A DNA stretch of 64,000 bases, taken from contig CAWIWS010000008.1 in NCBI GenBank assembly GCA_963839865.1, positions 60,301-124,300 on the forward strand, read 5' to 3'. This DNA comes from an uncultured Acidobacteriota bacterium. GTDB lineage: Bacteria > Acidobacteriota > Vicinamibacteria > Vicinamibacterales > UBA2999. Both the position numbers and the translations under genes were made by a program. Below the pieces are notes generated by a model that ran no database searches, was not told the DNA's origin, and worked only from the letters and a program-made list of their open reading frames with translations. Within the stretch, counting starts at the first letter, position 1, and each line of letters begins with the position of its first letter. Below, in pieces: positions 31,754-51,628 of this stretch.

Positions 31754-31754
31754 G

Positions 31755-32594
31755 ATGACCCGCTGCGACGTGTGTGACGCCGACGGCACGGGGGTCGGCT
31801 ACGCCGGACTCCGCCGCTGCGGCGCATGCTCGCACGTGTGGGCGGACCTCTCCCTCGACCCCGAGGCGATTCAACGGCTGTACCAGCGCAGCTACTTCTT
31901 CGGCGACGAGTACGGCAATTACCTCGAGGACCGGCGGATCATCGAGAAGAACTTCGCGGGCCGCCTCGCCACGCTGCGGCGGTTCCTGACCGCCTCCCAC
32001 CGGCGGCTCTTCGAGGTTGGGTGTGCCTACGGGTTCTTCCTGAATGCCGCGCGGAGCCTGTTCGAGTCGGTCCGGGGCATCGATGTCTCTGAGGACGCGG
32101 TGCGCTACGCCACCCGGGAACTGGGCCTCGACGTGTCGTGCGGCGACCTCCTGGCGGCGGATTTCTCGGGACAGACCTTCGACGTCGTGTGCATGTGGGA
32201 CACCATCGAGCACCTGGCGGCGCCGCGGCGGTACATCGAGACCGTGGCGGCTCACATGCCGCCCGGCGCGCTCATCGCCGTCACCACCGGCGATATCGGC
32301 AGCCTGAACGCCCGCGTGCAGAAGGGCAGGTGGCGCCTGATCCATCCGCCGACACACCTGCACTACTTCACGCGCCGATCCCTCTCGGCCCTCCTCGAGC
32401 GGTGTGGCTTTCGCGTGATCCACGTCGAGTATTGCGGCGTCTATCGAAGCCTGGGCGGCATGCTCCACAACCTGGTCGCGCTGCGGGGCCGCTGGCCGCG
32501 CCTGGGTGCGTGGCTGCAGCGCGCTGCGCCGTCCGGCCTTGATGTGTACCTGAACCTGCACGACATCATGTACATTGTCGCGGAGCGCCGATGA
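31755..32594 (+). CDS. Class I SAM-dependent methyltransferase with N-terminal CxxC...CxxC zinc-ribbon-like motif
   Basis: CDVCDADG...CGACSHVW; motif I LFEVGCAYGFF; DVVCMWDTIEHL; ALIAVTTGD. Confidence 0.75.
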   Translation: MTRCDVCDADGTGVGYAGLRRCGACSHVWADLSLDPEAIQRLYQRSYFFGDEYGNYLEDRRIIEKNFAGRLATLRRFLTASHRRLFEVGCAYGFFLNAARSLFESVRGIDVSEDAVRYATRELGLDVSCGDLLAADFSGQTFDVVCMWDTIEHLAAPRRYIETVAAHMPPGALIAVTTGDIGSLNARVQKGRWRLIHPPTHLHYFTRRSLSALLERCGFRVIHVEYCGVYRSLGGMLHNLVALRGRWPRLGAWLQRAAPSGLDVYLNLHDIMYIVAERR

Positions 32595-33580
32595 CACACC
32601 TCCTGATCGTGACGCCGGCGTTCAACGAGGCGGCCGTGCTTCCCGATTTCGTGCAGGCGGTCCTCGCGCTGCGCCGGCAGTTGTCCGCCACCACCGACGT
32701 CCGCCTCCTCGTGGTGGACGACGGATCGATCGACGACACGGCCGGCGTGCTGCGCCGGGCGGCGGACGCGCACCCCGACGTGGTCGCCTACCTTTCGCTT
32801 ACCGCCAACGCCGGCCACCAGGCGGCGCTGATCGCGGGCCTCTGCCATGCGGGGGCCTGGCCCGATGCGATCGTGACGATGGACGCGGATCTCGAGCACC
32901 CGATGGCCGTGGTGGGCGAGCTCGTTGAGAAATGGCGGGAGACCGGTGCGATCATCGTCCACGCCATTCGACGGCCGACCCGCGAGCTGCCACTGCTCAA
33001 GCGCCTGCCCTCCGCCATGTTCTATCGCGTCACGGCGGCGCTCACCGGCTTGAGCCTCTCGACCGGCCAGGCCGACTTCCGCCTCTGGGACGCGCAGGTA
33101 CTGCGCAGCGTGGCGGATTACCTGCCGCACATCGGCTCGCTCCGCGTGTTTGCCGCGTGGCTGCCGGGGCGCAAGTCGGCGGTGACGTACGAGCAGCACG
33201 TTCGCAACGACCGCACATCGCGGTTCACCTTCAGCAAGAACTACGAGCTGGCCGCCATCAGCATCGTCCGCTTCTCGCACGTGCCGCTGCAGATCATCAG
33301 CGGCCTCGGGTTGATTGGATTGATCTTCTCGTTCAGCTACGGCGGCTTCATCGCATGGGAGACGTTGCAGGGCAACACCGTCCCCGGCTGGTCGAGCACC
33401 GTGCTGACGGTGATGACGATGGGGTGCCTGCAGCTGCTGGCGTTCGGCGTGCTTGCCAGCTACTTCCAGCGGCTGGTGTTTGCCAGGGACCTGCCGCCAT
33501 GGGTGATCCGCACGTCGCGCCTGGCGCCGTTGGCGCCGCCGGATGCGCGCGAGCCCGCACGGATGGATGGCCTAAAATAG
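32591..33580 (+). CDS. GT2 polyprenol-phosphate glycosyltransferase (GtrB/ArnC/DPM1 type), intact
   Basis: ATG 32591 overlaps the upstream stop. Motifs: VTPAFNEA, LLVVDDGSIDDT, N.GHQAAL.AG, MDADLEHP, FRLWD. Two C-terminal TM helices (IISGLGLIGLIFSF.., VLTVMTMGCLQLLAFGVLASYF). Confidence 0.8.
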   Translation: MTHLLIVTPAFNEAAVLPDFVQAVLALRRQLSATTDVRLLVVDDGSIDDTAGVLRRAADAHPDVVAYLSLTANAGHQAALIAGLCHAGAWPDAIVTMDADLEHPMAVVGELVEKWRETGAIIVHAIRRPTRELPLLKRLPSAMFYRVTAALTGLSLSTGQADFRLWDAQVLRSVADYLPHIGSLRVFAAWLPGRKSAVTYEQHVRNDRTSRFTFSKNYELAAISIVRFSHVPLQIISGLGLIGLIFSFSYGGFIAWETLQGNTVPGWSSTVLTVMTMGCLQLLAFGVLASYFQRLVFARDLPPWVIRTSRLAPLAPPDAREPARMDGLK

Positions 33581-33596
33581 GGAGCTTCCCCTCACC

Positions 33597-35606
33597 GTGA
33601 CGACGCCACTCCGGACAATCTTTCGTGAGGCCCTCGTCGTTGCTGCGTTGTTTGCCGTGTCGCTCGTTGCTTCGCAGTCGGCCATGCATGGCTTCCGTGC
33701 GGCCGGGGCACAGCCCTTCTTCTATCAATCGAACTTCGAGCCGGCCGTGATGATGGCCTGCGGGCGGGGATTCGTGACGTCTCCCTCGGCCCCGCCGCAG
33801 CTGGCCGAATTCCTCAATGTCTCGCGGAACGACTTCGATTGCGCCCTCCTGCCGGCCGGGATGACCGAACTGCCGCTGACGACGCCGGCGAACGCGAACT
33901 GGTACTACCTGTACGGCGCGGCCGCGGCGGTCTGGAAGATGACGGGCGTGTCGTGGACGGCGCTGGATGGGCTCGTGTCCGCGATGAGCGCCGTCGGCGC
34001 CGTGTTGCTCTACGGGTTGTTCCGGCTCGTGACCAATACACCGGTGTCCGCCGCGCTTTCGCTGCTGCTGACGCTCTCGCCCGCCAACCTGACGCACCTC
34101 TTGTCGCTGCGCGACTACAGCAAGGCGCCGTTCGTGCTCGGCGCGATCCTGATTCTCGGCGCGCTGGTCATGCGGCCCATGCGTCGCGCCGGCACGCTCG
34201 CGCTGGCGGCGACGTACGGGGTCGTTGTGGGGATCGGCTATGGGTTTCGCGGCGACCTCGCCGTGATGGTGCCGTTCGGCGCCATCGTGGTGTTGCTGTT
34301 CCTGCCCGGCGCGATCCGCGCTCATGCCTGGCGCAACGCCCTCGCGACCTCCGTGCTCCTCCTCGCGTTCGTCGTCTCCGCGTGGCCCGTGATCAGCGGC
34401 CTCCAGCTCGGCGGGTGCCAGTACCACTTCTCGCTGCTCGGCCTCACCGATCCCCTGACGAGCGAGTTGCGGCTCACGCCGTCGATTTACCGCTTCGGGG
34501 AACACCTGTCGGACACGTTCGCCGACCTCAAGACCGGCGATTACGCCGCGCGCGTGCTCGGCGCGCCGGTGCCGAGGCTGTGCTCTGCCGAGTACGACAC
34601 GGCTTCCGGCCAACTGTATTTCGATCTCGCCCGGACGTTTCCCGCCGACTTCGTCGTGCGGGCGTATGCGTCGGTCCTCATGATCCTGCGCGTCGGCCTG
34701 GCGATTCCCGAAGCCATGCTTCCGATGGTGCCGTTCGCGGACAGCCAGGCGGCGGTAGGGGCCTATCGGGCGCTGCATGCGATCACGTCGCCGCTGTCGG
34801 CCCTCGGGGTGCTGGTCACCGTCGCGGCGATCGCCGGTGCCTGGGCCTCCTCGATTCGGCTGGGCCTGGCAATGACGGCTTTCGTGCTGTTTCTCACCGG
34901 TTATCCAGCGATCCGGTTCGACGAGCGTCATTGGTTTCACTTGCGGTTCATTCCCTGGTGGGCGGCCGCCCTCGTGGGCACGGAACTGCTGCGCCTCGGG
35001 ACACGCGCCTGGGAACGCGCGCGCCTGGTGCGCGCCGCGGTCGCGATCGGCGGGCTGCTGCTGGCGTTGGCCGCGTCGCTCGGGGCCCTGCGACTCGTGC
35101 AGGCGGGACGGGTGGAGGCGCTCGTGACCCAATATCTCCATGCCCCGACCGAGGCCGTGCCGGCGCAGGTGGTGGACGGTGCCACGTTGCGCGTGGACTG
35201 GCAGCCTCGCGACGCCGGCACGCCACCCGCGCATCGCGCGTCGGACCTCCTGGTGGTCACGCTCGAGGGGCCGGCCTGTGCGGGGACCGGGGACCTCGGC
35301 CTGCGCGTCACCTACGACGCCGACGTGCCCAGCCACGACATGTCCACGTCGTTCACGGTGGCGCGCCCAACGGCCGGGCCGACGAAGCTCTTCGTGCCGG
35401 TGTTCTGGCAGGGCGTCGGCGATCACGACGACCTCCGCTTCTCCGGACTCCAGGTCGCCGGCGCGTCGAGCGCCTGCGTTGGACAGGTGGCCCGGGTGAC
35501 GAGCGGCCGCCAAGTGCCGCTGTGGGTCGAACTCCAGGTCCCGGCGGACTGGGCGAGCTATTCCTTGTACGAATCCATGCGACCACCACGACTGCTCAAC
35601 CGGTGA
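33597..35606 (+). CDS. Large polytopic membrane protein, family copy P4 (intact, 669 aa)
   Basis: GGAG lies 12 nt upstream of GTG 33597. Motifs: FEPAVMMACGRGF, NDFDCALLP, NLTHLLSLRDYSKAPF, GYPAIRFDERHWFHLRFIPWW, Cys pair PACAG...SACVGQVARV. Confidence 0.8.
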   Translation: MTTPLRTIFREALVVAALFAVSLVASQSAMHGFRAAGAQPFFYQSNFEPAVMMACGRGFVTSPSAPPQLAEFLNVSRNDFDCALLPAGMTELPLTTPANANWYYLYGAAAAVWKMTGVSWTALDGLVSAMSAVGAVLLYGLFRLVTNTPVSAALSLLLTLSPANLTHLLSLRDYSKAPFVLGAILILGALVMRPMRRAGTLALAATYGVVVGIGYGFRGDLAVMVPFGAIVVLLFLPGAIRAHAWRNALATSVLLLAFVVSAWPVISGLQLGGCQYHFSLLGLTDPLTSELRLTPSIYRFGEHLSDTFADLKTGDYAARVLGAPVPRLCSAEYDTASGQLYFDLARTFPADFVVRAYASVLMILRVGLAIPEAMLPMVPFADSQAAVGAYRALHAITSPLSALGVLVTVAAIAGAWASSIRLGLAMTAFVLFLTGYPAIRFDERHWFHLRFIPWWAAALVGTELLRLGTRAWERARLVRAAVAIGGLLLALAASLGALRLVQAGRVEALVTQYLHAPTEAVPAQVVDGATLRVDWQPRDAGTPPAHRASDLLVVTLEGPACAGTGDLGLRVTYDADVPSHDMSTSFTVARPTAGPTKLFVPVFWQGVGDHDDLRFSGLQVAGASSACVGQVARVTSGRQVPLWVELQVPADWASYSLYESMRPPRLLNR

Positions 35607-35622
35607 GCGGGAGAGACTGACC

Positions 35623-36711
35623 TTGAAGACGATCGTTCACGTCGTCGGCGCGCGGCCCAATTACATGAAGATTGCGCCGCTCATGGACGCGCTCCGCGGC
35701 GCGCCCGGCATCCGGCAGATCCTCGTCAACACCGGGCAGCACTACGACGAGGCGATGTCCAAGTCGTTCCTGCGCGAGCTGTCGCTGCCCGCGCCGGATC
35801 GCAACCTGGAGGTCGGCTCGGCGAGCCACGCCGTGCAGACGGCCAAGGTGATGATCGGCTTCGAGCAGGTCTGCCTCGAGGAGAAGCCGGATCTCGTCGT
35901 CGTTGCCGGTGACGTGAACTCGACGATGGCCGCGACGCTGGTGGCGGCGAAGCTGATGATCCCCGTGGCCCACCTCGAAGCGGGCCTGCGCAGCTTCGAT
36001 CGCGGCATGCCGGAGGAGGTCAACCGCATCGTGACCGACTGCCTCGCGGACCTGCTGCTCACGCCGTCCACGGACGGGGACGAGAACCTGATGAAGGAAG
36101 GCGTGCCGCGCGAGAAGATCCACTTCGTCGGCAACATCATGATCGACACGCTGATGCGCCACCTGCCGATGGCGACGCTCGCGCGCATCCAGGACCGCGT
36201 GCCCGTGACCGACAAGGGCTACGGCGTGCTGACGCTGCACCGCCCGTCGAACGTGGACGACCCCGTCATCCTGCGCCGCATCCTCGAGGCCATCGCTCAC
36301 GTTGCGCGCCAGATGCCGGTGGTGTTCCCCGTGCACCCCCGCACCCGCCAGAGGCTCGCGGCCTTCGGCGTGGATGACCTGCTGGCCAACGTGATCCTCA
36401 CCGAGCCGATGGGCTACATCGACTTCCTGAGCCTGACGTCGCACGCGCGGATCATCCTGAGCGACTCCGGCGGCCTCCAGGAGGAGTCGACGGCGCTCGG
36501 CATCCCGTGCCTGACGCTGCGTGAGAATACCGAGCGCCCCGTCACGATCACCCACGGCACGAATCGACTCGTGGGCACGCAGACGGCGAACATCATCGCG
36601 GGCTTCGACGAGGCGATGGCGTCCGAGCATGCGCCGCAGCGGCGACCGCCCCTGTGGGACGGACACACCGCGGAGCGCGTGGCGGCGGTGCTGCAGAAGT
36701 TCCTGGCCTGA
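35623..36711 (+). CDS. wecB: UDP-N-acetylglucosamine 2-epimerase (non-hydrolysing)
   Basis: 362 aa. Motifs: VVGARPNYMKIAPL, NTGQHYD, GDVNST.A, HLEAGLRSFDR.MPEE.NR, SDSGG.QEE. GGGAGAG RBS lies 8 nt upstream of TTG 35623. Confidence 0.9.
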   Translation: MKTIVHVVGARPNYMKIAPLMDALRGAPGIRQILVNTGQHYDEAMSKSFLRELSLPAPDRNLEVGSASHAVQTAKVMIGFEQVCLEEKPDLVVVAGDVNSTMAATLVAAKLMIPVAHLEAGLRSFDRGMPEEVNRIVTDCLADLLLTPSTDGDENLMKEGVPREKIHFVGNIMIDTLMRHLPMATLARIQDRVPVTDKGYGVLTLHRPSNVDDPVILRRILEAIAHVARQMPVVFPVHPRTRQRLAAFGVDDLLANVILTEPMGYIDFLSLTSHARIILSDSGGLQEESTALGIPCLTLRENTERPVTITHGTNRLVGTQTANIIAGFDEAMASEHAPQRRPPLWDGHTAERVAAVLQKFLA

Positions 36712-38806
36712 TGACCGTCTCGACATTCGTCGCGCGCGCCAAGAAGGCGCTGCGCATGCCCCCACGGGTGCTGGCGGCGCGCCTCCGTGAGTCGTTGCGC
36801 GCGCATTCACGCCGACCCTGGTCGCAGGTGTACCCGCGCGTGCTGCGGGACCAGGCGATCCTCGGCGAGAGCGGCGCCGCGACGTTCGACGCGTTGTGGG
36901 CGCGGCAGATGGCGCAGCCGTTCTTCCTGCAGCCCGCCGATCGCGATGCCTACGTCGCCGCGTTTCGCGCGCGGTACCCGGAGGAGGTCACCGCGGTCCT
37001 CGCCACCGCGGACGCGGCGATGCGGCACGAGTTCGACCTGCTCGGCTCCGGCGTCACTGCCCTCGGACCGAAGCTGCCGTGGCTGGACGACTTCAAGACC
37101 GGCCGTCGGTATCCGGTGCAGTACCTGCCGCGACATCCAGTACATGGAACTCGAGAAGCCCACGGACGTGAAGGTGCCGTGGGAACTGAGCCGGTGCCAG
37201 CACTTCACCGCGCTCGGCCAGGCGTACTGGCTGACCGGTGACGAACGGTACGCCGCCGAGTACCGCGCCGAGATTGAAGACTGGATTGCGACCAATCCCT
37301 TTGCCTACAGCGTGAACTGGGCCTGCGCGATGGACGTCGCCCTGCGCGCGATCAACTGGATTTGGGGTTTCTATTTCATGGCCGGTTCGGCGGCGTGCGC
37401 CGATCCCGCGTTCCGCCGCCGGCTCCTGCGGAGCCTCTTCCTCCACGGCGAGTTCGTGTTCCAACACCTCGAGAAGGGCGACGTCAACGGCAACCATTAC
37501 CTGAGCGACGGCGCGGGCCTCGTGTTCCTCGGGCTGTTCTTCAAGCACACGCCGCAGGGGCGCCGCTGGCTCGACACGGGCAGGGCGATTGTGGTCGACG
37601 AGATGCTCCTCCAGGTCTCGGAGGACGGCGTGGATTTCGAGCAGTCCACCTCCTATCAACGACTGGTCCTCGAGTTGTTTCAGACGTCATACCTGCTGCT
37701 GGAGAAGCACGGCGAGCGCGTGCCGGAGGCGCAGTCCGCGCGGCTCGCCCGCATGCTCGAGTTCGTGTGCGCGTACACGAAGCCGGACGGCCTCGCCCCG
37801 CTCATCGGAGACGCCGACGATGGCCGGGTGCAGAAGCTCGGGTCGCAGCGCCTCAACGACCATCGCTACCTGGTCTCGACAGGCGCCGTGCGCTTCGCGC
37901 GGGCGGATTTCAAGGCCGCGGCCGGCCGGTTCTGGGCCGAGTCCTTCTGGATGCTGGGGCCGGAGGGCGCCGCGTCCTTCGACGCGCTGGCGGACGGTCC
38001 CGCCGGCGTCCGGCTCGGTCGCCTTTCCAGCCGGCGGCTTCTACGTCCTCCGAAGCCCTTCGGCGCACGTCGTGATCGACTGCGGCGAGGTGGGAATGCG
38101 CGGGCGCGGCGGCCACGGACACAACGACATCACCAGCTTCGAGCTGTTCCTGAACGGCATGAACGTCGTCTCCGACTGCGGCGCCTACCTCTACACCGCT
38201 TCGCGCGAGTGGCGGAACCGGTTCCGCAGCACGGCGTTCCACAACGTGGCGCAGGTCGACGGGGAAGAGTTGAACCGGTTCATCGGCCCCGACGCGCTCT
38301 GGCAGTTGATGTACGACGCCCATCCCGTCGATCTCGAATGGAAAAGCGACGGATTCGGGGGATACTTTTGTGGAGGGCACGACGGCTACGCGCGGCTCGC
38401 GCCGCCCGTCGCCTCGGTCCGGGAGTTGTTCGTCGATCCCACCCGTCCGCGCGTCGCGTTGCGGGACCGCCTGTCGAGTGCGCGGCCCTCGAGCGGCACG
38501 ACGTGGCGGTTTCACTTCGATCCCGCGCTCGACGCGGACGCTGGTGGGGCCGGACTGCCGCCTCCGCGCGGTGGCCGCGAAGTCTGGCTGCTGGCGGCCG
38601 ATGAGGCCGACACGCGCGAGCGGCGGATCGAGCCCGGCTGGGTCTCGGCGGGCTATGGCGTGAGGATGGAAACGTCGGTGCTCGTGATCCCCGACAACCA
38701 GATGCCGGCGACGTTGGCGTGCGTGTTCGCGGACACGCGCCTCACGGCCGAAGAGCGCCGCGAGGTCACGGCACAACTTGATGCGCATCGTGCGCGCATC
38801 CACTGA
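36711..38806 (+). pseudogene. Heparinase II/III-like (alginate-lyase-type N-domain + Hepar_II_III C-domain) protein, copy 1; +1 breaks near 37128 and 38000
   Basis: ATG 36711 shares one nt with the upstream TGA. Three ORF-track pieces (36654-37241, 36787-38604, 37589-38806) join colinearly: ..HEFDLLGSG.., VPWELSRCQHFTALGQAYWLTGDERYA, NHYLSDG.GL, DGLAPLIGDADDG, AFPAGGFYVLRS, GHGHNDITSFEL, HN...VDG. No signal peptide is evident. Confidence 0.75.
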
Positions 38807-38823
38807 AGGACAAGAAGAGCGTT

Positions 38824-41482
38824 ATGCGTCAGATTCTCATGAACATGGGCGGCGCGGTCGTCGCGCGCGTTCCCGCGGCCGGCCGTCGAAGCGGGCAGCG
38901 TGCTCGTCCGCGTGCATTACTCCCTCGTCAGCGTGGGCACCGAACTGGCGCCCCTGAAGGCGCCGCTCGTGCCCACGGCCGAAGGGCGCGAGCGCCGTTG
39001 AGAAGGGCGCGGCCTATGCCAGCCTCGCCACGCACTACCTCAAGGCCTCGTGGCGCGATCCCGAGAAGGCCGCCCGGCGCCTCGCGTCGATCGCTCGACA
39101 GGCAGCTGGCGCAGCTGAAGCCGGCGACGACGCCGCAGACGCTGGCGCCGGTGGTCACGGCGGGCGACCTGCAGTGGACGCAGGCCAACGCGGTGAAGTT
39201 CTCCGCGAAGGACGGCCGGCTCGAGATCAGCACGGACGATTCCGCCGGCCGGCTACCAGGTGATGACGCGCGAATTGGCCGTGCCCGAGGGCCTGGTGCC
39301 GCTCATCCGCGTCGCCGGCACCGTGCACAGCGGCGCCATCGCCATCGGCATCCTCAACGCCGGCCGCCAGGCCTGGCTCGGCTCGAAGACGTTCGACGCC
39401 GGGCCGCTTCGAGGACTACCTGATCTTCGATCCCGGCGCGTCGCGCCAGGTCACGGTCGTGATCGCCAACTCGAACGGCGGCAAGTCGCAGGTCACCGTC
39501 GACACCGTCGAAGTGACGATGGCGCCGTCGACGCCGGGCGGGCTGCCCTACAGCGAGATGGACCAGACGGGCTGGAACATCGGCTACTCGGTCGTCGGGC
39601 GAGGTCGTGGCCGTCGGCGAGGGCATCACCGACCTCGTCGCCCGGCGACCTCGTCGCGTGCGCGGGCGCGGGCGCGGCGAACCACGCGGACTACGTCAGC
39701 GTGAAGCGGAACCTCGTGTGCCGCGTGCCCGCCGGCTGCGCGGCGAGCGCGGCGGCCTCCGCCACGATCGGCTCGATCGCGCTGCAGGGCGTGCGCCGCG
39801 CGACGCCGCAACTGGGCGAGCGCATCGCCGTGCTGGGCCTCGGCCTCATCGGCCAGATCACGGTGCAGTTGCTGCGCAGCGCCGGATGCACGGTCATCGG
39901 CCTCGACCTCGATCCCGAGCGCGTCGCGCGCGCCAAGGCGCTCGGCATGGACGCCGGCGCGTCGGATCCCGGAGGCGTTCAAGGCGCTCGTGCGCGACTG
40001 CACCGAGGGCCGCGGCGTGGACAAGACGCTGATGACGGCGGCCACGCGGTCCGATTCCGTCGTGAACCTCGCGATGGACGTCACCCGCGCCAAGGGCGCC
40101 GTCGTCATCGTCGGCGACGTGGGCCTGAACGTGCAGCGCGCGGTCTTCTATCGCAAGGAGATCGACCTGCTGATGAGCACGTCGTACGGCCCGGGCCGCT
40201 ACGACGCAGACCTACGAGGTCGACGGGCGCGACTACCCGTTCGCGTACGTGCGCTGGACGCTGAACCGCAACATGCAGTCGTATCTCGAGCTGATCGCCT
40301 CGGGACGCGTGAACCTCGACGCGCTGATCGATCGGGTGATCACCGTGGACGAGGCGACCGCCGCCTACAAGGCGCTCGCCGGCGCGGCGGGCACGCCGCC
40401 GCTCGGCGTCCTCATCCGGTATCCGGACGACGCGCGGGAGCTGCCGGAGCCGGCCGATGCGACGCGGATCACGGTGCGCGGCCACAAGCCGCCGAACCCC
40501 GAGCTGATCAACTACGCGCTCGTCGGCGCCGGCGCCTTCGGCATGGCGATGCTCGTGCCGCAGATGAAGAAGCGGAAGGACCGCTACTTCCTCCGCGGCG
40601 TCGTCACGCGCAACAACGCGCAGGGCGGCAACTTCGCGCGCGAGAACGGCGTGGAGGTGCTGGCGTCGGAACTCAAGACGGTCCTGGACGACCCGTCGTT
40701 CCACCTGATGGTCATCGCGACGCGGCATCACGAGCACGTCGGGCCGGTCATCGAGAGCCTCAAGGCGGGCAAGCACGTGTTCGTCGAGAAGCCGCTGGCG
40801 ATCACCTGGCAGGGGCTGGATGACGTCGTCAAGGCGTACAACAGCCTCGAGCACAAGCCGCTGCTGATGGTCGGGTTCAACCGGCGCTTCTCGCCGGCGG
40901 TCACCGAGATCAAGAAGGCCGTGGCCGGGCGCCGGGCGCCGCTGATGATCGAGTACCGCCTGAACGGCGGCTACATCCCGATGGACAGCTGGGTGCAGGG
41001 CGCGCAGGGCGGCGGCCGCAACATCGGCGAGGCCTGCCACATGTACGACGTGTTCCGCTCGCTGACGGGATCGCCGGTGCGGTCCATCTCCGCGACCTCG
41101 ATCGATCCCGGGCACGCTCCCGTACCTGCGGAACGACAACTTCTCCGCGACGATCGGCTACGAGGACGGCAGCGTGGCCACGCTCGTCTACACCGCGCTC
41201 GGGCCCAAGACCGGCATGAGCAAGGAGCGCATCGAGGTGTTCTGCGACGGCGACGCGTACGTCGTGGACAACTTCCAGAAGCTCACGCGCGCGAGCGACG
41301 GGCACGTGATGTGGCAGAGCAGCGAGCCCGACAAGGGGCACGCCGAGGAGTTCAGCCTCCTCGGTGACGCCATCGCCACCGGCGGCGCGGCGCCGATTTC
41401 CTTCGAGGAGATCGTCGAGACGACGGCGGTGTCGCTGCACGTCGAGGACCTCCTGCACCACCGAGAGGAAGGGAGCGCCTAG
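38824..41482 (+). pseudogene. Bi-domain oxidoreductase (N-terminal MDR/zinc-type alcohol dehydrogenase-like + C-terminal Gfo/Idh/MocA) with a ~150-aa inserted module; about 10 consecutive +1 frame breaks
   Basis: Sense hops through frames 1>2>0>1>2>0>1>2>0>1>2 at about 38865, 38992, 39097, 39253, 39408, 39598, 39640, 39970, 40210 and 41118. The repaired reading contains VLVRVHYSLVSVGTE, GDLVACAGAGAANHADYV, AVLGLGLIGQITVQLL (Rossmann), then YALVGAGAFG, HVFVEKPLA, GFNRRF (Gfo/Idh/MocA). At ~886 aa it is about 150-180 aa longer than the ~700-aa size I recall for this fusion type. Confidence 0.7.
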
Positions 41483-41484
41483 GC

Positions 41485-44229
41485 ATGGCCTCGTGCCTGT
41501 ATGTCGGGCCACGGCTCGACAGCTTCCGGCATCGTCAGCCGCGAGGGTCTGGAGGCGACGACGGAGCGTCACCGTCTCGAGATCCCGCCGGCGGTCATGA
41601 CCCCGGTCCGCGCGTCCGCTCGACGAATTGGCGCGCCTGCCGAACCTGGCCGGCGTCATCGTGGAGATGCACCAGGGCTGGCCCGGGCAGAACCACCTGC
41701 GGTTTGCCGCGGTCCGCGGCGAAGATGGGCCGTCGCGTCTGGTTCTACTGGCCCGCCGAGGATGCGATCGAGTGCATCGACGGCGAACAGCTGACCACGT
41801 ATTGGAACCTGTGGGTACTTCATGCTGGCGGTCCGCACGTGGCGCCGCGTGGCGCGCGTGGTGGCCCGTGCCTGGCGGGCGGTCACGTTGCCGTACCGGA
41901 TGGCCCGGGTCCTCGCCGTCCAGGCCAACGCGCCGGCGCCGGGCGCGCCCGCCGGGCAGGTGCCCACGGACGTGGCGGCCGAGCGTTCCCGCCGCGCGCT
42001 GGCGGAGCTGATGCCTGTCGCCGAGCCCGTGCCGATGGGCGAGGCCCCCTCGCAACCCGACGCGGCGCACCGCGTTCGCCGGTACCGGCGTCTACTTGCG
42101 CACGGACTTCTGGGCGCAGATCACCTCCGGCGGCAGCTACGGCCACACTTGCTACGTGGCGAAGGAACTGGCCGCCGTCACAGAACGGTTCACCTGCTTC
42201 ATGGGCAGCCGCTTCAGCCTGCTCGACGAGCTACGGCCTGCACCAGGTCGTGCTGCCGCGCCCATCGGAGACGAGCAGCGAGTCCGACCTCCTCGAGGCG
42301 CACTGGGCGTACTACCCGCAGCTGAAGCTGGCCTGCCGAGCGTTGAGGCCCGCCTACATCTACGAGCGCCTGTGCATGGGCAACTTCTGCGGGGCCGCCC
42401 TCAGCCATGAACTCGGCATTCCCTACATCGTTGAATACAACGGCTCCGAGATCTCGATGACTCGGAGCTTCGGCGGCGTGGCCCTCACGCACGAGGACGT
42501 CTTCATCGCCGCGGAGGACGCGGCGTTCAGGCAGGCGACGATGATCAGCGTCGTGTCGCAGGTGATGCAAGGACTCGCTCGTGGCGCGCGGCGTCGACGC
42601 GGCGAAGATCCTGGTGAACCCGAACGGCGCCGACCCCGACACCTACCGCCGATGGCACCGGCCGCGAAGGCGGCCCTGCGCGCCGAACTGGGTTTTGCCC
42701 CCGACGATCGGGTGGTCGGCTTCACCGGCACCTTCGGAGGATGGCACGGCATCGACGTGCTCGCCAAGGCCATCCCGACGATTTGCGCCGCGTCAGCCGC
42801 GCGTCATGTTCCTGCTCATCGGCGACGGCACGCACAAGCACTTCGTGGACGACGCCGTGGTCGAGCACGGGCTCGAGCGACGGGTGAAGAGCGTGGGCCG
42901 CGTGCCGCAAGCCGAAGGCGCGCGGTTGCTCGGCGCCTGCGACCTCTACGTGTCACCGCACAACAGCCACATGGTGGACAGCAAGTTCTTCGGCTCGCCG
43001 ACCAAGCTGTTCGAGTACATGGCGATGGGCGGCGGCATCGTCGGCAGCGACCTCGAGCAACTTGGCGAGGTGTTGTCGCCGGCGCTGCGGGTGTCCGATT
43101 TCCGCAAGGCCGACGTCGCCGTGGGCCCGGAGCGCGCCGTCCTTTGCACGCCGGGCGACGTGGACGAGTTTGCCGAGGCCGTCGTCGCGCTGGCCGAGCG
43201 CCCGAAGGTCGCGGAGACGATTGGGCGCAATGCGCGCCAGGCCGTGATCGATGAATTCTCGTGGCGCCGTCACGTCGGCCACGTCTGGCGGTTCCTCGAC
43301 GACGATCGGCCGGCGTTGGCGGCCCGGAACGAGCGCGCGCGCGAGCGCGCCGCACAGGCCCTGGCAGGAGTCGTCGTGGCGCCGGTGGTCGTGCCGGAGC
43401 GGCCTGGCCTGCGACCGCGTGGAGACCGGCGACGCCTACAAGGAAGAAGTCCAGGACCAGTGGAACAACAACCCGGTCGGCAGCCACTACGCCAAGGTGA
43501 CCAAGCCGCACACGCTCGAGTGGTACCACGAGATCGAGCGATACCGGTACGCGGAGTACGCGCCGTGGATGCTCGAGGTCATGGAGTTCCAGCGGCATGC
43601 GGGTCACGACGGTGCTGGAAATCGGCGGCGGCCTGGGCACCGACCTGAGCCAGTTCGCCCGCAACGGCGCGATGGTGACGGACGTGGACCTGTCGGCCGG
43701 TCACCTGGGGCACGCGAAGGAGAACTTCGAACTGCGCGGCCTCACCGGCCAGTTCGTGCACCACGACGCCGAGGATCTGCCGTTTCCCGACAACAGCTTC
43801 GACGTCGTCTACAGCAACGGCGTGATCCACCACACGCCGAACACCCAGCAGGTGGTCCGCGAGATCCGGCGCGTGCTGAAGCCCGGCGGCAAGGCGATCA
43901 TCATGCTGTACGCCGAGCATTCCTGGCACTACTGGTACCGCCTGGTCTGGGAACAAGGCGTCAAGCACGACATGCTGTCGACGTATTCGATCGGCGAGAT
44001 CATGTCGCGCCGCGTCGAGATCACCGAGAATGACGCGCGGCCGCTCGTGAAGGTATACACGGCGCGCCGGCTCCGGCGCATGTTCAAGGACTTCGCGTCA
44101 CACGCCTTCTACAAGCGCCAGTTGATCCGGTCGGAGTTGCCGGCAGGGCTGCGCTGGGTGCCCGTCGAGCCCGCGTCGAAACTCGTGGGGTGGAACATCA
44201 TCATCAAGGCGACCAAGCCCCGCGCATGA
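41485..44229 (+). pseudogene. Tri-partite fusion: novel N-domain + GT4-type glycosyltransferase + class I SAM methyltransferase, copy 1; about 11 frame breaks
   Basis: The reading is colinear with the better-preserved copy 2. Breaks are at about 41505, 41618, 41712, 41818, 42074, 42230, 42572, 42652 (-1), 42790, 43397 and 43612. Blocks: CLYV..TERHRLEI, RRVWFYWP, GVYLRTDFWAQITSGGSYGHTCYVAKELA, IVEYNGSEI, ILVNPNGADP, GTFGGWHGIDVL, FFGSPTKLFEYMAMGGGIVGSDL. The methyltransferase part has VLEIGGGLGTD, VYSNGVIHHTPN and LKPGGKAII. Confidence 0.7.
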
Positions 44230-46823
44230 GCGAGCGCATGGACTCGTGCCTCTACGTCACGTCGAACCTCGGCGCGGCGGCGACGGTGACCGAGGCGGGG
44301 CTGGCGGAGACCACCGAGCGCCATCACCTGGCGATTCGCCTGGGGCCGATGGCCACCTGCCTCGATCCGCTTGGCGAACTGGCCAGGCGGCCGGACCTCC
44401 TCGGCGTGATCGTCGCGATGGAGCGCGGGTGGCCTGGCTCGTCTCACCTCCGGTTTGCGTCCGCTGCGCTGAAGCAGAAGCGCCGCGTGTGGTTCTATTG
44501 GCCGTCGGAGCAGGCCGTCGAGGTGATCGACGCCGACACACTGGGCACCTACTGGCGGCTGTGGGCCTACTGCACGGCGGACCTGCTCAAGCGCCGCCTC
44601 AAGGGCCTCGTGCGACCGCAAGTGCACGACGCCGGCGCGGATGTCGTCGAGCGCTGCAGCGTCGCGCTGCGGCAGCTGTACGGCGGCGCCTCGCCGGTGC
44701 CGTTCCCCACGGATCTCCCTCGGCCGACTGGCGACCGTCGCATTCCCGGCACGGGCGTGTACCTCCGCACGGACTACTGGGTCCAGTTGACGTCGGGCGG
44801 GAGCTACGGGCACACCTGCTATGTCGCGCGCGAGCTCGCGGCCGTGACGGAGGACTTCACGTGCCTCATGGCCAGCCCCTTTGCGATGCTGGACGAGTTC
44901 GGCCTGCGGCAGGTGGTGATGCCGCCGGCCTCGGACTCGGCCGCGGAGATTCCGCTGCTGGCCGCGACGTGGCACTACTATCCGATCCTGAAGGTGGCGT
45001 TCGGAATGCAGCGGCCGGCCTATATCTACGAGCGCTTGTGTCTCGGCAACTTCGCCGCCGCGCTCGTGAGCCAGGAACTCGGCATCCCCTACATCCTCGA
45101 ATACAACGGCTCGGAAATTTCGATGAGCCGCAGCTTCAACGGGACGAGCCTCGAGCATGAGCAGATGTTCGTGCGGGCTGAAGACGCCGCCTTTCGCCAG
45201 GCCACGCTCATCACCGTGGTGTCGCAGGTGCTCAAGGACTCGCTGGTCGCGCGAAAGGTCGATCCGCGGAAGATCCTCGTCAATCCCAACGGCGCCGATC
45301 CGGTGCAATACGCGCCGCCGTCCGCCGAGGCAAGGCGCGCCGTGCGGACGAACCTCGGGTATACGGACGATGACCGCGTCATCGGGTTCTCGGGCACGTT
45401 CGGCGGCTGGCACGGCATCGACGTGCTCGCGGAGGCGATTCCGAAGATCTGCGCACGCGCGCCGAAGGCGAAGTTCCTGCTGATCGGCGACGGCTCGCAC
45501 AAGCCCATGCTGGACGAAGCGGTGTCGCAACACCACCTGCAGTCGCGCGTGCACAGCGCGGGCCGCGTGCCCCAGCAGGAAGGCGCGCGGCTGCTCGGCG
45601 CGTGCGACATCTTCGTCTCTCCCCACAACAGCCACATGGTGGACAGCAAGTTCTTCGGGTCGCCGACGAAGCTGTTCGAGTACATGGCGATGGGCGGTGG
45701 CATCGTCGGCAGCGACCTCGAGCAGCTGGGCGAAGTCCTGTCGCCGGCGCTGCGGCCCGCCGATCTCGGTCCGTGCCGACCTGCGCGTCGGCGTCCGAGC
45801 GCGCGGTGCTGTGCACGCCCGGCAGCGTCGAAGAATTCGTCGAGGCAGTCGTCGGCCTCGTTGATCGGCCGGACGTGTCCGCCGCGCTCGGCCGCAACGC
45901 CCGGAAGGCCGTGCTCGACCAGTTCACCTGGGCACGCCACGTCGACAACGTGTGGCGCTTCGTGCGCGAGGAACTCCAGGCCGGCCCGGCGGTCGCGGCG
46001 GAGCCCGGGCGCGTCACCACCGGCGACGCCTACAAGGAGCAGGTCCAGGACCAGTGGAACAACAACCCGGTCGGGACGCACTACGCGAAGACCACCGAGC
46101 CGCACACGCTCGAGTGGTTCCAGGAGGTCGAGGCGCACCGCTACGGCGTCTACGCCCCGTGGATGCCCGCGCTGATGGAGTTCGACCAGCACGCCGGCGA
46201 GGACGTGCTCGAGATTGGCGGCGGCATCGGCACCGATCTGAGCCAGTTCGCGCGGCACGGCGCGCGCGTGACCGACCTCGATTTGTCGGCCGGACACCTG
46301 GCGCTCGCGCAAGAGAACTTCGAGCGGCGCGGCCTCCAGGGCCGCTTCGTGCACCACGACGCCGAGTCGCTCCCGTTCGACGACAACACCTTCGACGTCG
46401 TCTATTCGAACGGCGTGCTGCACCACACGCCCAACACGCGCCACGTCGTCCAGGAGATCCGGCGCGTGCTGAAGCCCGGCGGCAAGGCGATCGTGATGAT
46501 GTACGCCGAGCACTCGATTCATTACTGGCGTGAGCTGGTGCGCACGCTCGGCCTCGACCGCGACCTGTTGAAGAACCACTCGATGGGCGAAATCATGTCG
46601 AGGTACGTCGAGATCTCCCAGAATGACGCGCGTCCGCTCGTGAAGGTCTACACAGCCGCGCGCCTCAAACGCCTCTTCGACGGGCTTCGAGGGCCGCGCG
46701 GTCTACAAGCGCCAGTTGATGCCCAGCGAAGTCCCCGGCGCGTGCTCGTGGCTGCCCCTCGACCTGAACGGGCGGCTCATGGGTTGGAACGTCATCATCA
46801 AGGCCAGGAAGCCCCGCACGTGA
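44226..46823 (+). pseudogene. N-domain + GT4 glycosyltransferase + SAM methyltransferase fusion, copy 2; +1 breaks near 45769, 45798 and 46685
   Basis: ATG 44226 overlaps the upstream stop (ATGA). ORF 44190-46175 is intact through the GT4 domain. Two +1 shifts 30 nt apart restore LRPADL|VRADLRVGV|ERAVLCTPG, which is length-identical to copy 1. The methyltransferase domain is in ORF 45602-47071. The last ~45 codons (EGRAVYKRQLMPSE...GWNVIIKARKPRT) are in frame 0, ending at TGA 46821-46823. Confidence 0.75.
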
Positions 46824-48876
46824 GTCTTGTCTCGCGACTGAAACAATTGATTCGCGGCACGGTCGCCATGCCGGCGGCCGCGCCGGTTGCCGACCTCGGC
46901 GCCGGCAGCACCGCCGGAGCGATGGGACGATCAGGTCGCCGCACTCGGCGTGACCGTCGACGTGTGGTCGCAGCAGCGGCGGGATGCGGGACGGCTCTAC
47001 GCGGACGTATCCGACGCGGCGATCGAGGCCATGCGCGCGCGGTGGCCCGACCGCGTCGCCCGCCTCCGTGACGCGGCGGATCGCATCTGCGCGCACGAGT
47101 TCGACCTGCTCGGCAGCGGCTTCGGGGTGATCGCCGATCCCGACCGCCCGGCCGGCGCCGATGGCTACCGGCCGATTGATTGGGCGGTGGATCCAATTGC
47201 GGGTCTTCGTTTTCCATCGGGATTCCCGCACAAGCAATGGAACCCGGGGATGCGTCCCGGACTGGCGGACATCAAGTGGCCGTGGGAAATCGGCCGCTGC
47301 CAGCACTGGGTGACGCTGGGCCAGGCGTTCCGCCTGACCGGCGACGAACGCTACGCCGCCGAGATCGTGCGCCAGCACGCGGACTTCATGGAGGCGAACC
47401 CGGTGGGGATCGGAGTGCAGTTCGTCTGCACGATGGACGTGGCGATCCGCGCCTTCAACTGGGCCCTGGCCTTCGAGTTGATTCGGCAGTCGGCGTCGTT
47501 CGATCCGACCGCGATGGCGCGCGCCTACCGGTCGCTCTTCGACGTCGGCGTCTTCATCGAAGGCAACCTCGAGAACAAGTACGAAGTCACGAGCAACCAC
47601 TTCCTGAGCAACGTCGTCGGGCTCTACGGCGTCGGCCTCGTGTTCAGCGATCTCGCGGCCGGCCGGCGTTGGCTGGGCGAAGGCCGCGAATGGCTCGAGC
47701 AGGAGATGCGCGTCCAGGTGCTCGAAGACGGCATGGACTACGAATCATCCATTCCGTATCACCGCCTCGTCGCCGAGTTGTTTCTTGGCGGCGCACGGGT
47801 CGCGGAACTCGAGGGATCGCCGTTGTCGCCCGAGTATCTCGAGAGCCTGCACCGGATGGTCGAGTTCCTGGTCGCCGTGCAGCGGCCCGACGGCGTGATG
47901 CCGCAGGTCGGCGACGCGGATGACGGGCGCCTCCACATCTTCACCGACTACGGAACCTGGAAGCCGCAGGATGGTCGGCACCTCGCCGGCCCCGCGGCGT
48001 TCGTGCTGCACGAGCCCTCATGGGATGCGGCGGGCGGCGACGACGGGCAGTGGGAGGCGGCGTGGTGGGGCGCGAATCCCGCCGAGGCAGGGCAGCCTTC
48101 TGGAATTGACGTAGGGCACCCCTTTACGGGGTGCCCCGACACCGCCCACCTCTTCCCTCACGCGGGGATCGCCGTGTCGCGCACGGGCGGTACCTACCTG
48201 CTCGTCACCAACAGCCGCGTGGGCACCAACGGGTTCGGCAACCACAAGCACAACGACCTGCTGTCGTTCGAATTTCACGCCGACGGCGTGCCGCTCATCG
48301 TGGACCCGGGCAGCTACGTCTACACATCCGACCCCGACGCTCGCAACCTGTTCCGCACGACCGGGTATCACAACACCCTGCGAATCGACGGCGTCGAGCA
48401 GAACGACGTGCGGCTCGACTATCTCTTCCGGATGTTCGAGACGTCCACGGTGGAGCACCTGGCCTTCGAGGACTCGCCTTCGGAGACGACCTATCGTGGC
48501 CGGCACACGGGTTACGAACGCCTCCCCGCCGCGGTGACGCACGAGCGCGAGTTCCGCGTCGACCAAGGATCCGGGAGCGCTGACGATTACCGACCGCTTG
48601 AGCGGCGGCGGCACGCATGCCCTCACGTGGCACTTCCACGTCGCGCCGGGGGTTGGCGTGGCCGATCTCGGCGGCGGACGGTTCGCGCTCTCGGTGCCGG
48701 GAGGGATCTGGGAACTGCGCGCGCCGTCGCACCTGAAAGCCGCCGTATCCGACGCGTGGTACTCGCCCTCGTACGGCATGCGGGTCCCGTGCCGCGCCAT
48801 CGACTTCTCGGCGACGGCGGACGTGTCATCCTCGCCGGACTATCACTTCGCGATTGGACCCCAGGCCCATGGCTAA
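46820..48876 (+). pseudogene. Heparinase II/III-like protein, copy 2; +1 breaks near 46915 and 48585
   Basis: GTG 46820 overlaps the upstream stop (GTGA). VSLVSRLKQLIRGTVAMP.. (frame 2) passes into ORF 46887-48914 (HEFDLLGSG, WPWEIGRCQHWVTLGQAFRLTGDERYA, NHFLSN, DGVMPQVGDADDG, GNHKHNDLLSFEF, HNTLRIDG), then into frame 1: ALTITDRLSGGGTHALTWHFHV...AIGPQAHG*. Confidence 0.75.
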
Positions 48877-49691
48877 CCCTGTCTCCGCCCTCGCCCGAGG
48901 CACGACCGCGATGACCCGCACGCTGGCGGGCAACGCGCGGCTGCTCGTGGCCATCACGCGCGTCGAGCTGTCGAAGAAGTACGCCGGCTCGGTGCTCGGC
49001 CCCCTGTGGCTGGTCCTCCAGCCCGCGCTCCTGCTCTCGGTCTACATCTTCGTCTACCTCGTCGTCTTCAAGATGCGGTTCAAGGATTTCAGCCGCCTCG
49101 ACTACGTGCTCTACGTGTTCACCGGGCTGATCCCGTACATGGGGACCATCGACGCCATCACGTCCGGCGCCGTGTCCATCAAGCAGAACATCCATCTCGT
49201 GAAGAACGTGATGCTGCCGATTGAACTCGTGCCCGTGCGGGCCGTGCTCGTCGCGTCCCTCAGCCAGGCCGTGGGGCTCGGCGTGGTCATCCTGCTCACG
49301 GCGATCAACGGGTCGCTCACGTGGCACATCCTGTGGCTGCCCGTCGTGTGGGCGCTCCAGATCCTCATGCTTTTCGGCATCGCCTGGATCCTCGCGAGCA
49401 TCGCCGTGGGCCTGCCCGACATCAGCTATTTCATCAGCCTGTTCCTGTTCCTGCTGATGTGGGTGTCGCCGATCGGCTTCACGCCGGACATGGTGCCGGC
49501 CAGACCTGGCGGCGATGCTCTATCTCAACCCGGTGTACTACCTGCTCGAGATGTATCGCGACAGCCTGCTCTTCGGGCACCTTCCGTCGCTCCAGGTGGC
49601 CGGTGTCTACGCCGGCATGTGCCTCTTCACGTTCGCCGTCGGCAGCGCGTTCTTCCGCGCGTTCCGCAGCGTCCTCCTGGATTACGAGTAG
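48869..49691 (+). pseudogene. ABC-2 type transporter permease (Wzm/KpsM/TagG-like polysaccharide exporter component); +1 break near 49505
   Basis: RVELSKKYAGSVLGPLWLVLQPALLL.., 6 hydrophobic helices. After ..FTPDMVPAR the sense continues in frame 0 (LAAMLYLNPVYYLLEMYRDSLLFG...LLDYE*), which is typical of ABC-2 C-termini. No ATPase gene lies adjacent. Confidence 0.7.
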
Positions 49692-49706: not shown

Positions 49707-51628
49707 ATGTGCGGCATAGCCGGCGTCCTGGCCTTCGACCACGGCGCCACCCGTGTGTCCGAACCCCTCGTGACGGCGATGCGCGAGACGCTGCGGCATC
49801 GCGGACCCGACGGCGGCGACACCTGGGTGGACGCGGCCGGCCGCATCGGTCTCGGCCATCGCCGCCTGTCGATCATCGACCTCGCGACGACGGCCTCGCA
49901 GCCGATGGCCAACGAGGACGGCACGCTGCACATCGTCTTCAACGGCGAGATCTACAACCACCTCGACCTGCGCGCGGAGTTGTCGAAGTCGGGACGGCAC
50001 CGGTGGTCCACGGACCATTCCGACACCGAGGTGATCCTCCACGGCTTCGAGGAGTGGGGCATCGAGGTCGTCCACAGGCTGCGCGGGATGTTCGCGTTCG
50101 CGTTGTGGGACGCGCGCGAGCAGGCGCTGTGGCTCGTGCGCGACCGCATCGGCATCAAGCCGCTCTACTACAGCCTCGACGCCCACCGCCTCTGCGTTCG
50201 CCTCCGAGATCAAGGCGCTGCTCGAGGTTCCGGGCCAGCGCCGCGCCGTGCACGAGGAAGCGCTCTTCCACTACCTGTCGTTCCTGACGACGCCGAACAC
50301 GCAGACGCTGTTCGACGGCATCCTCAAGATGGCGCCGGGCACCTGGCTGCGCGCCGGCGCCGACGGTCGCGTCACGCAGAAGCGCTACTGGGACGTGTGG
50401 GATGCCGCTCGGCCGCTCGAGGCCGGATGACGACGAGTCGCTGGCCGAGCGCGTGCTCGACGAGCTGCGCACCTCGGTGCGTCTGCGCAAGCTGAGCGAC
50501 GTCCCGGTCGGCGTGTTCCTCTCCGGCGGGCTCGACTCCAGCACCAACGCCGCGCTGTTCTCGGAGGGCGAGGGGCGCCCGGTCCGCACGTTCTCCATCG
50601 GCTACGACCGCGACTACCCCGGCTACGCCAACGAGCTGCACTTCGCACGCTCGATGGCCGAGCGCATCGGCGCCGAGCATCACGAGCGCCGCCTCACGCG
50701 GGACGACGTCGTGGAGTTCCTGCCGAGGATGGTGCACCTGCAGGACGAGCCCATCGCGGATCCGGTCTGCGTGCCGGTCTACTACGTGGCGAAGCTCGCG
50801 CGCGAGAGCGGCACCGTCGTCTGCCAGCTCGGCGAGGGCGCCGACGAGCTGTTCATCGGGTACCCCAACTGGCTGCAGGCGCTCGAACGGCAGCAGTATG
50901 ACGACCTGCCGGTGCCGCGCTTCGTGAAGGGGCTGGCCGCCGCCGGGCTCAAGGCCGCCGGCTACGACCACGCGTGGCAGTACGAGTACCTGCGCCGCGG
51001 CTCGCGCGGCGAGCCGTTGTTCTGGGGCGGCGCCGAGTCGTTCCCCGATGCCGAGAAGCGCCGGCTGCTTGGCTCACGCCTGCGAAGTCAGTTCAAGGAC
51101 CTCACGTCCTGGGACGCGCTGGCGCCGATTCGAGCGGATTTCCTGAGCAAGGCGCACGAGACTTCGAGCCTGAACTGGATGAGCTACGTCGACCTGCGCC
51201 TGCGCCTCCCCGAGCTGCTGCTGATGCGCGTCGACAAGATGACGATGGGCGTGGGACTCGAGGCGCGGGTGCCGTTCCTGGATCACGAGTTCGTGACGCT
51301 GGCGATGAGCATCCCGAGCGCGCGCAAGGCGCCGAACGGCCGGCTGAAGCACCTGCTGAAGACCGCGGTGCGGGACCTCGTCCCCACCGAGTTGATCGAA
51401 CGGCGCAAGCAGGGCTTCGGCGTGCCCGTCGATGACCTGTTCGCCGGTCGCCTGGCCGAGGTTGCCACGAAGGAGCTGACGCGTTTCTGCGACGAGACGG
51501 GGCTCTTGGACAAGGCGGCCGCGCTGCATCTCGTGCGCTCCGGCCAGGGCTCGAAGACCTGGTACCTGCTGAACCTGGCGATGTGGTGGCGCCACTTCAT
51601 CGCGGGTGAGGAACTGGAGGTCGAATAG
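49707..51628 (+). pseudogene. asnB: Asparagine synthase (glutamine-hydrolysing) family amidotransferase, copy 2; +1 breaks near 50190 and 50425
   Basis: MCGIAG, RGPDG, FNGEIYNH, GIKPLYY. Then frame 1 reads FASEIKALLE...YLSFLTTP. Then frame 2 carries the PP-loop FLSGGLDSS, and ends with ..DKMTMGVGLEARVPFLD..RRKQGF. Confidence 0.8.

Follow-up and report, generated by a model that had tools for sequence, protein, structure and literature searches.

Clustered single-base frame breaks in a metagenomic contig of an uncultured Acidobacteriota bacterium are probably errors of the consensus

Described sources of broken reading frames and the present locus

Pseudogenes with several lesions are known in reductive genomes such as those of Mycobacterium leprae and of recent host-restricted bacteria. 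Programmed +1 frameshifting is known from bacterial prfB and from Euplotes genes, and transcriptional slippage rescues frameshifts in endosymbionts. Single-base indels that split conserved open reading frames (ORFs) are also left behind in long-read genomes and metagenomes, where they are referred to as the 'IDEEL' problem (Sereika et al. 2022, PMC9262707; proovframe preprint, 10.1101/2021.08.23.457338). Here, a stretch of 64,000 nucleotides (the window; positions 60,301 to 124,300 of contig CAWIWS010000008.1, assembly GCA_963839865.1) from an uncultured Acidobacteriota bacterium was analysed. Within it, two adjacent genes, one for a bi-domain oxidoreductase (Ox) and one for a glycosyltransferase family 4 fused to a class I methyltransferase (GT4-MT copy 1), are split by 21 frame breaks (the hotspot). 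An earlier note on this DNA had described these breaks and had considered local errors of sequencing, assembly or polishing more likely than genuine pseudogenes with multiple hits.

With residual long-read indels the locus shares the uneven density, the recovery of full length once the indels are removed, the origin from a long contig of an uncultured organism and the fragmentation of homologs on other long contigs. However, typical Nanopore residual errors comprise deletions as well as insertions within homopolymers, whereas here 20 of 21 hotspot breaks are insertions and only about 10% of the insertions examined are of homopolymer type. A break about every 230 nt across 5 kb is also a very high density for a long-read consensus that has been polished. 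Pseudogenes of reductive genomes likewise carry several frameshifts per gene, with neighbouring pathway genes hit together, but they mix deletions, insertions, nonsense mutations and larger deletions and show raised amino-acid divergence, in contrast to the stop-free and near-pure +1 pattern found here. In prfB, Euplotes and slippage cases the frame also advances by +1 inside conserved coding sequence. These use a slippery or stop context or long A/T homopolymers that are conserved among orthologs, whereas no common motif, stop or conservation was found at the breaks in the window.

Break sites, repair and conservation of the two broken genes

The window has a G+C content of 68%, and nearly all genes lie on the plus strand. 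Because spurious ORFs are frequent in DNA of such high G+C content, the true coding frame was located by two signals, a frame plot of G+C at third codon positions (GC3) and a Viterbi segmentation by codon usage that was trained on the long ORFs of the window. By both signals, the coding frame between 38.8 and 44.2 kb cycles from +0 to +1 to +2 and back to +0 in pieces of 46-900 nt, whereas elsewhere it stays fixed for 1-4 kb; translated in order, the pieces yield a continuous and sensible protein.

Breaks were called by three-frame protein-to-DNA dynamic programming with frameshifts allowed, in which each protein of a related locus (L001, an ENA scaffold syntenic with 31.7-51.5 kb of the window at about 80% nucleotide identity) was aligned to the window. 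This covered 11 genes. Placement of the insertions was refined by nucleotide alignments with L001 and with a second relative (L002), which agrees with L001 over its extent. Segmentation and alignment gave 21 breaks in 4.83 kb (4.35 per kb), of which 20 are +1, in agreement with the roughly 21 breaks in about 4.9 kb counted before. In none of the 11 aligned genes was an in-frame stop found, and no non-triplet indel of more than one base occurred in them. The two genes and their break sites are listed below, with inserted bases, or two tandem alternatives, in brackets.

38824 to 41482, plus strand: bi-domain oxidoreductase (Ox) with zinc-type ADH and Gfo/Idh/MocA domains, split by ten +1 single-base insertions
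38870 to 38875 (break 38872), plus strand: Ox extra base 1, ambiguous within TTCCCG
38982 to 38987 (break 38984), plus strand: Ox extra base 2, within AAGGGC
39098 to 39100 (break 39099), plus strand: Ox extra base 3, within ACA
39245 to 39248 (break 39247), plus strand: Ox extra base 4, within CCGG
39399 to 39405 (break 39401), plus strand: Ox extra base 5, within CCGGGCC
39593 to 39594 (break 39594), plus strand: Ox extra base 6, GT[C][G]TCG
39639 to 39640 (break 39640), plus strand: Ox extra base 7, GT[C][G]CCC
39967 to 39972 (break 39968), plus strand: Ox extra base 8, GA[T]CCCGG
40206, plus strand: Ox extra base 9, GAC[G]CAG
41106 to 41113 (break 41107), plus strand: Ox extra base 10, GA[T]CCCGGGC
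41485 to 44229, plus strand: GT4-MT copy 1, glycosyltransferase family 4 fused to class I methyltransferase, with ten +1 insertions and one -1
41528 to 41530 (break 41530), plus strand: GT4-MT copy 1 extra base 1
41614 to 41615 (break 41615), plus strand: GT4-MT copy 1 extra base 2
41711 to 41713 (break 41712), plus strand: GT4-MT copy 1 extra base 3
41817 to 41831 (break 41818), plus strand: GT4-MT copy 1 extra base 4, position poorly resolved
about 42077-42078, plus strand: GT4-MT copy 1 extra base 5 (G)
42228, plus strand: GT4-MT copy 1 extra base 6 (G)
about 42567-42568, plus strand: GT4-MT copy 1 extra base 7
42647 to 42648, plus strand: GT4-MT copy 1, the single -1 break with one base missing, also present in the Viterbi segmentation
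42788 to 42790 (break 42790), plus strand: GT4-MT copy 1 extra base 8
about 43397-43398, plus strand: GT4-MT copy 1 extra base 9
43607 to 43610 (break 43608), plus strand: GT4-MT copy 1 extra base 10

Stitched together, Ox is one polypeptide of about 880 aa with the Pfam domains ADH_zinc_N (339-458), GFO_IDH_MocA (558-673) and GFO_IDH_MocA_C3 (710-804), and its 881 aa align at 92% identity and 100% coverage to intact 880 aa proteins from many metagenomes. Two weaker matches (about 64-69% identity) from metagenome-assembled genomes of Vicinamibacterales (Acidobacteriota) are named 'bi-domain-containing oxidoreductase' by their source, and with both domains in one chain and an end-to-end alignment Ox belongs to these proteins. 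GT4-MT copy 1 carries Glyco_transf_4 (216-378), Glycos_transf_1 (389-576) and Methyltransf_11 (699-794; Methyltransf_11/25). It aligned to residues 1-908 of the 908 of its L001 ortholog with 11 frameshifts and no stop; this ortholog is intact and has the same domains, which identifies the gene as a fusion of a glycosyltransferase family 4 with a class I S-adenosylmethionine-dependent methyltransferase.

When one base was deleted per break (or one added at a -1 break), all seven broken genes became single stop-free ORFs of ortholog length, which supports the observation that the encoded proteins are otherwise conserved and lack separate in-frame stops. Repaired Ox has 881 aa. Among about 28 intact relatives most proteins have 879-881 aa, and a few, that of L001 included, are called at 894 aa. 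Despite its ten indels, it matches all 483 of 483 columns that are invariant in 16 homologs. Among the 17 aligned oxidoreductases, the window protein has 0 private changes at otherwise invariant columns, and the others have 1-12 each. In a simulation, about 40% of substitutions placed at random changed one of the 483 invariant residues. The ten Ox insertions can therefore have been accompanied by no more than about 7 unselected substitutions; the probability of 0 altered invariant columns given 50 substitutions is 2e-9.

The ratio of non-synonymous to synonymous substitution rates (dN/dS) relative to L001 was 0.068 for Ox with its 10 breaks, compared with 0.059 for intact WecB (UDP-GlcNAc 2-epimerase), 0.091 for an intact methyltransferase and 0.085 for GT4-MT copy 2. 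GT4-MT copy 1 had a higher value (0.248), yet one close to that of an unbroken 642 aa membrane protein (0.193). Neither dN/dS nor changes at conserved residues indicated relaxed selection. In mutation accumulation, 5-20 base substitutions occur per indel, and a random substitution in these genes creates a stop in about 3% of cases; at this ratio, 3-13 nonsense mutations would be expected in 5.4 kb, where 0 were seen. From this we infer that the process that made the breaks adds bases and hardly ever substitutes them. The lesion mix of pseudogenes (deletions, nonsense mutations, larger indels) was not found, whereas a one-directional bias of the kind expected of technical error was, with no excess of substitutions.

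The inserted bases themselves are mostly flanked by unlike neighbours in the nucleotide alignments with L001 and L002, as in GT[C]G (twice), GA[T]CCCGG (twice), GAC[G]CAG and CG[A]CAGG. Homopolymer-type insertions made up 3 of 31, compared with 25-30% when insertions were simulated with uniform or genome composition and 35-40% with a GC3-like mix, using the same classifier; the earlier note had likewise placed most of them outside homopolymers. The association with homopolymers that is expected of Nanopore, 454 or Ion Torrent type errors was not seen. A search for a shared motif around the break sites returned no k-mer that was significant after multiple-testing correction.

In Ox, nine of the ten breaks can be read as two synonymous third-position alternatives in tandem, for example CC[C][G], GA[A][G], GT[C][G] and GA[T][C]; in the case of CC[C][G], L001 has CCC and L002 has CCG. 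The idea that a single nucleotide polymorphism between two haplotypes had been kept as both bases was not significant overall (16 of 31, with a null of 41-47% for insertions of uniform or genome composition) and was set aside.

The palindrome CGGTCCG (CGGWCCG) lies within a few bases of four breaks (41604-41610, 41710-41716, 41829-41835 and 45767-45773). Three of its four copies in the hotspot are affected, and 22 other copies in the window lie away from breaks. This could be a coincidence or a minor context-specific component of error at a methylation motif.

Outside the hotspot, breaks are sparser. Alignment to L001 revealed no frameshift in the four genes at 31755-36708, two firm ones in the heparinase II/III-like gene upstream of Ox (Hep1), three in GT4-MT copy 2, two in a second heparinase-like gene (Hep2), one in an ABC-2 permease gene and two in an asparagine synthase-like gene (AsnB). 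Beyond the syntenic stretch, where the geometry of stop codons at Viterbi boundaries was used to distinguish gene borders from intragenic breaks, breaks were located at about 3215, 5174, 7520, 10386, 12686, 17464, 18335, 53308, 54161 and 57329, and Pfam domains continue across the stitched junctions at 5174, 7520, 17464, 18335 and 57329. The whole window thus holds about 44 breaks, of which about 40 are +1, close to the 43 or so estimated previously; the four that are not +1 (10386, 12686, 42647 and 57329) agree with those listed then, and the two stretches that had been described as clean (19025-36711 and 58212-64000) are indeed free of intragenic breaks.

The -1 at about 10386 sits in a G run, GCGGGGGGCTG (10380-10388), and is the sole clearly homopolymer-linked break seen, unlike the hotspot insertions. 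That 10386 and 12686 represent one conserved site in two paralogs was considered and rejected, as they are 17 codons apart and 10386 is a plain -1 in its G run.

The clustering is pronounced, with 21 breaks observed in the hotspot and 3.3 expected (Poisson P = 7e-11) and 0 observed in the 17.7-kb clean stretch (19.0-36.7 kb) and 12.2 expected (P = 5e-6). The bias of sign in the hotspot, 20 of 21, has P = 1e-5. Along the region the density runs through 0, about 1-2.4, about 4, about 1, about 0.45 and 0 breaks per kb, a smooth rise and fall over about 15 kb that ignores gene borders, and break-free gaps of 0.6-0.9 kb occur within the hotspot.

Consensus errors and competing explanations

The frame breaks are probably errors of the deposited consensus and not biology, to which we assign a probability of about 0.88 from sequence comparison. 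Spurious single-base insertions at about 0.4% of hotspot positions would have been left by an incompletely polished long-read metagenome assembly; the window comes from a long contig (187,309 bp) of an uncultured soil lineage, which is in line with such an origin. Its ORFs, truncated and wrong-frame ones included, are on record at NCBI and ENA from this one contig. Their local concentration would arise where the consensus rested on poorer evidence, either from few reads over a strain-variable sugar-gene island or from reads of mixed strains or species in polishing. That evidence was scarce or mixed at the hotspot is suggested, indirectly, by the rise and fall over about 15 kb, which is the scale of changes in long-read depth, and would be plausible for such an island in a soil metagenome. 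Local G+C content was discarded as a driver: although G+C is highest in the hotspot (0.706-0.709), other stretches of 0.70 have 0-1 breaks. Indels in long-read consensus sequences fragment gene calls, and polishing is needed for bins with less than about 40x depth (PMC9262707). In PacBio continuous long reads, errors are mostly insertions (8%), with 3.2% deletions and 1.7% substitutions, whereas Nanopore errors are balanced (PMC7671305). The error signature of the window resembles the PacBio continuous long read profile.

The relatives support an intact locus. In L001 no internal frame break is present in the genes for the methyltransferase, GT2, the 642 aa membrane protein, WecB, Hep1, the oxidoreductase, GT4-MT 1, GT4-MT 2, Hep2, the ABC-2 permease and AsnB (the last runs past the end of the L001 locus), and Ox orthologs are intact in about 28 other assemblies; the comparison with close relatives proposed at the outset speaks for intact genes. 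The same strain, at 99.9% identity, was also found in an independent Logan assembly (run ERR10755939), where two contigs cover 3.27 kb of the window with 0 gaps: L003 corresponds to 32165-34145 with 2 mismatches and L086 to 1629-2920 with 1 mismatch, both in break-free stretches. Homologous genes on two long contigs of Flye-style assemblies are fragmented as well. In L084 (ERZ25039464 contig_21406, 248 kb) they are broken throughout 20 kb with both +1 and -1, and in L085 (ERZ25039469 contig_14632, 833 kb) breaks fall mainly in the GT4-MT and AsnB homologs while flanking genes are intact, which suggests that such assemblies are generally error-prone and not that a signal is specific to this locus. 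Fragmentation of these genes is thus common in long-read assemblies.

In one relative, a 15.6 kb ENA contig encodes an ORF of 1794 aa (protein P0239) that joins the oxidoreductase to the GT4-MT downstream of it without interruption, either as a natural fusion or as another assembly artefact.

Several points weigh against consensus errors. The signature is odd for the likeliest pipeline, as the related long contigs look like Nanopore/Flye products and L084 has mixed signs, whereas the window has near-pure non-homopolymer insertions. The dN/dS values refer to a long branch (dS 0.6-0.9) and are blind to very recent inactivation. No same-strain fragment over any break was found by peptide homology, 90% clusters or exact look-ups, so that the conclusion is comparative and not direct. 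Stitched short peptides gave best matches of 83% (Ox N-terminus) and 59% (GT4-MT N-terminus) identity, the opened 90% clusters of the closest homologs held a nearest match of 94.7%, and exact look-ups of repaired ABC-2 variants, small neighbouring genes and truncated ORFs returned only the two same-strain Logan contigs, both from unbroken stretches. The absence of Logan fragments over the hotspot fits low depth or high heterogeneity there and proves nothing. Finally, the more specific form of the error explanation, in which both bases of a two-haplotype polymorphism were kept, was not significant overall; the tandem pattern in Ox hints at a consensus over two haplotypes, but this subset was chosen post hoc, and the pattern is a lead and not a finding.

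The strongest competitor is a genuine and very recent pseudogenisation, in which this population lost the function of the polysaccharide module (36.7-51.6 kb), which then accumulated real frameshifts. The breaks do exist in the deposited sequence, with truncated ORFs annotated as products, they were taken to fall within a single functional module that a free-living bacterium could afford to lose, and a long-branch dN/dS could miss a recent event. However, the module is not the only part affected, as breaks are found at about 0.4 per kb outside it. Break density also varies 3-4 fold from gene to gene within one operon and is uneven within genes, and neither nonsense mutations nor larger indels were found. 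We know of no spontaneous mutation spectrum that fits 20 insertions to 1 deletion, few of them homopolymeric. Natural bacterial indels are reportedly biased towards deletion, as Mira, Ochman and Moran are said to have described in 2001. Taken together, stop-free repair, dN/dS, the invariant columns, zero nonsense mutations and the 20:1 ratio of insertions to deletions make genuine multi-hit decay very unlikely.

Mis-polishing between paralogs, one of the causes that the earlier note had suggested for an artefact, fared no better. Cross-talk between GT4-MT copy 1 and copy 2 and between Hep1 and Hep2, in reads or during polishing, would place the hotspot where it is, within a tandemly duplicated module and with GT4-MT copy 1 among the two most broken genes. 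Yet Ox, with its 10 breaks, lacks any paralog in the window. Another 5 breaks lie in the first 600 nt of GT4-MT copy 1, where no DNA similarity to copy 2 is detectable, and the aligned parts of the two copies are 74-77% identical with exact matches of at most roughly 35 nt, too divergent to misplace long reads. This source of error is thus even less probable than decay. The preference for an artefact as such has held, given the repair, the invariant columns, the dN/dS values, the 20:1 ratio and the intact relatives.

There is also a slim chance, about as small as that of paralog cross-talk, that the extra bases are real and stem from an insertion-specific burst of mutation local to the sugar-gene island ('kataegis' by +1 insertions) or are handled by a recoding or editing system that still yields full-length proteins. 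If true, such a process would be undescribed and would explain the perfect conservation between the breaks. Recoding on its own, by programmed +1 ribosomal frameshifting, by slippage during transcription or by excision of the extra bases from the RNA, could likewise account for conservation as if a full-length protein were still made, but is hardly credible with no common slippery or stimulatory motif in the k-mer test, no stop of the old frame at the break (this frame runs on for 18-1727 nt before its next stop, and for >100 nt at 20 of 21 sites), no ortholog that requires a frameshift at any of these positions and, to our knowledge, no bacterial precedent for 21 recoding events in two genes.

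The surrounding gene cluster and consequences for its interpretation

The neighbouring genes on both sides of the hotspot are as follows.

35623 to 36711, plus strand: WecB, UDP-GlcNAc 2-epimerase, intact; residues 1-362 of 362 aligned to the L001 ortholog at 93% identity without frameshift; last unbroken gene before the break zone
36711 to 38806, plus strand: heparinase II/III-like protein copy 1 (Hep1); +1 at about 37125 and about 37993, and a possible compensating +1/-1 pair at 38540/38571
44226 to 46823, plus strand: GT4-MT copy 2; +1 at about 45768, about 45793 and about 46682; falling shoulder of the break zone
46820 to 48873, plus strand: heparinase II/III-like protein copy 2 (Hep2); +1 at about 46886-46896 and about 48561
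48869 to 49691, plus strand: ABC-2 type transporter permease; +1 at about 49502; Pfam assignment from the ortholog
49707 to 51628, plus strand: asparagine synthase-like amidotransferase (AsnB); +1 at about 50193 and about 50428

Intact Hep1 orthologs of 696-699 aa are present in L001 and L002. A further candidate '+1' at 38789 was rejected as a break, since it reflects a natural difference in the C-terminal length of Hep1, where L002 matches the length in the window. The +1/-1 pair in Hep1 is 31 nt apart and restores the frame, and the two +1 events at 45768-45793 in GT4-MT copy 2 are 25 nt apart; each leaves about 8-10 codons out of frame, and both may represent closely spaced errors or local misalignment.

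The cluster at 36711-48873 (6746-18836 in L001) has the layout of a tandemly duplicated, mirrored module, with heparinase-like, oxidoreductase and GT4-MT genes followed by GT4-MT and heparinase-like genes. The duplication is old, because the same layout is conserved and intact in L001 and DNA identity between the copies is down to 74-77%. Three paralogous multi-pass membrane proteins of 640-770 aa are encoded at 9094-11395, about 11400-13507 and 33597-35606 and share the motif FYQS(N/Y)FEPAVM..CG(R/K)GF. No Pfam match is on record for the L001 ortholog of this family, which may be a so far uncharacterised family of polymerases or glycosyltransferases from sugar clusters of Acidobacteriota.

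If the breaks are consensus errors as proposed, about 44 errors disrupt reading frames in the 64 kb of this record, and half of them are packed into 5 kb. Truncated or wrong-frame ORFs figure as distinct cluster representatives in public protein collections, for example 41485-43254 (P0123), a 589 aa ORF that runs mostly out of frame, and 38824-39423 (P0124), and therefore such errors would already have spread into sequence databases. The signature of near-pure non-homopolymer insertions, no substitutions and sharp local clustering could help to pinpoint one particular fault in an assembly or polishing pipeline. Until the sequence is re-polished or frame-corrected, pseudogene counts, calls of pathway completeness and protein-family statistics derived from this genome should not be trusted. 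For the organism itself the finding is minor. The source population, a Vicinamibacterales-like Acidobacteriota, almost certainly has Ox, both GT4-MT genes and their neighbours intact, and the locus is most likely a working biosynthesis cluster for a polysaccharide of the exopolysaccharide or O-antigen type, an ordinary cluster that is conserved in related Acidobacteriota.

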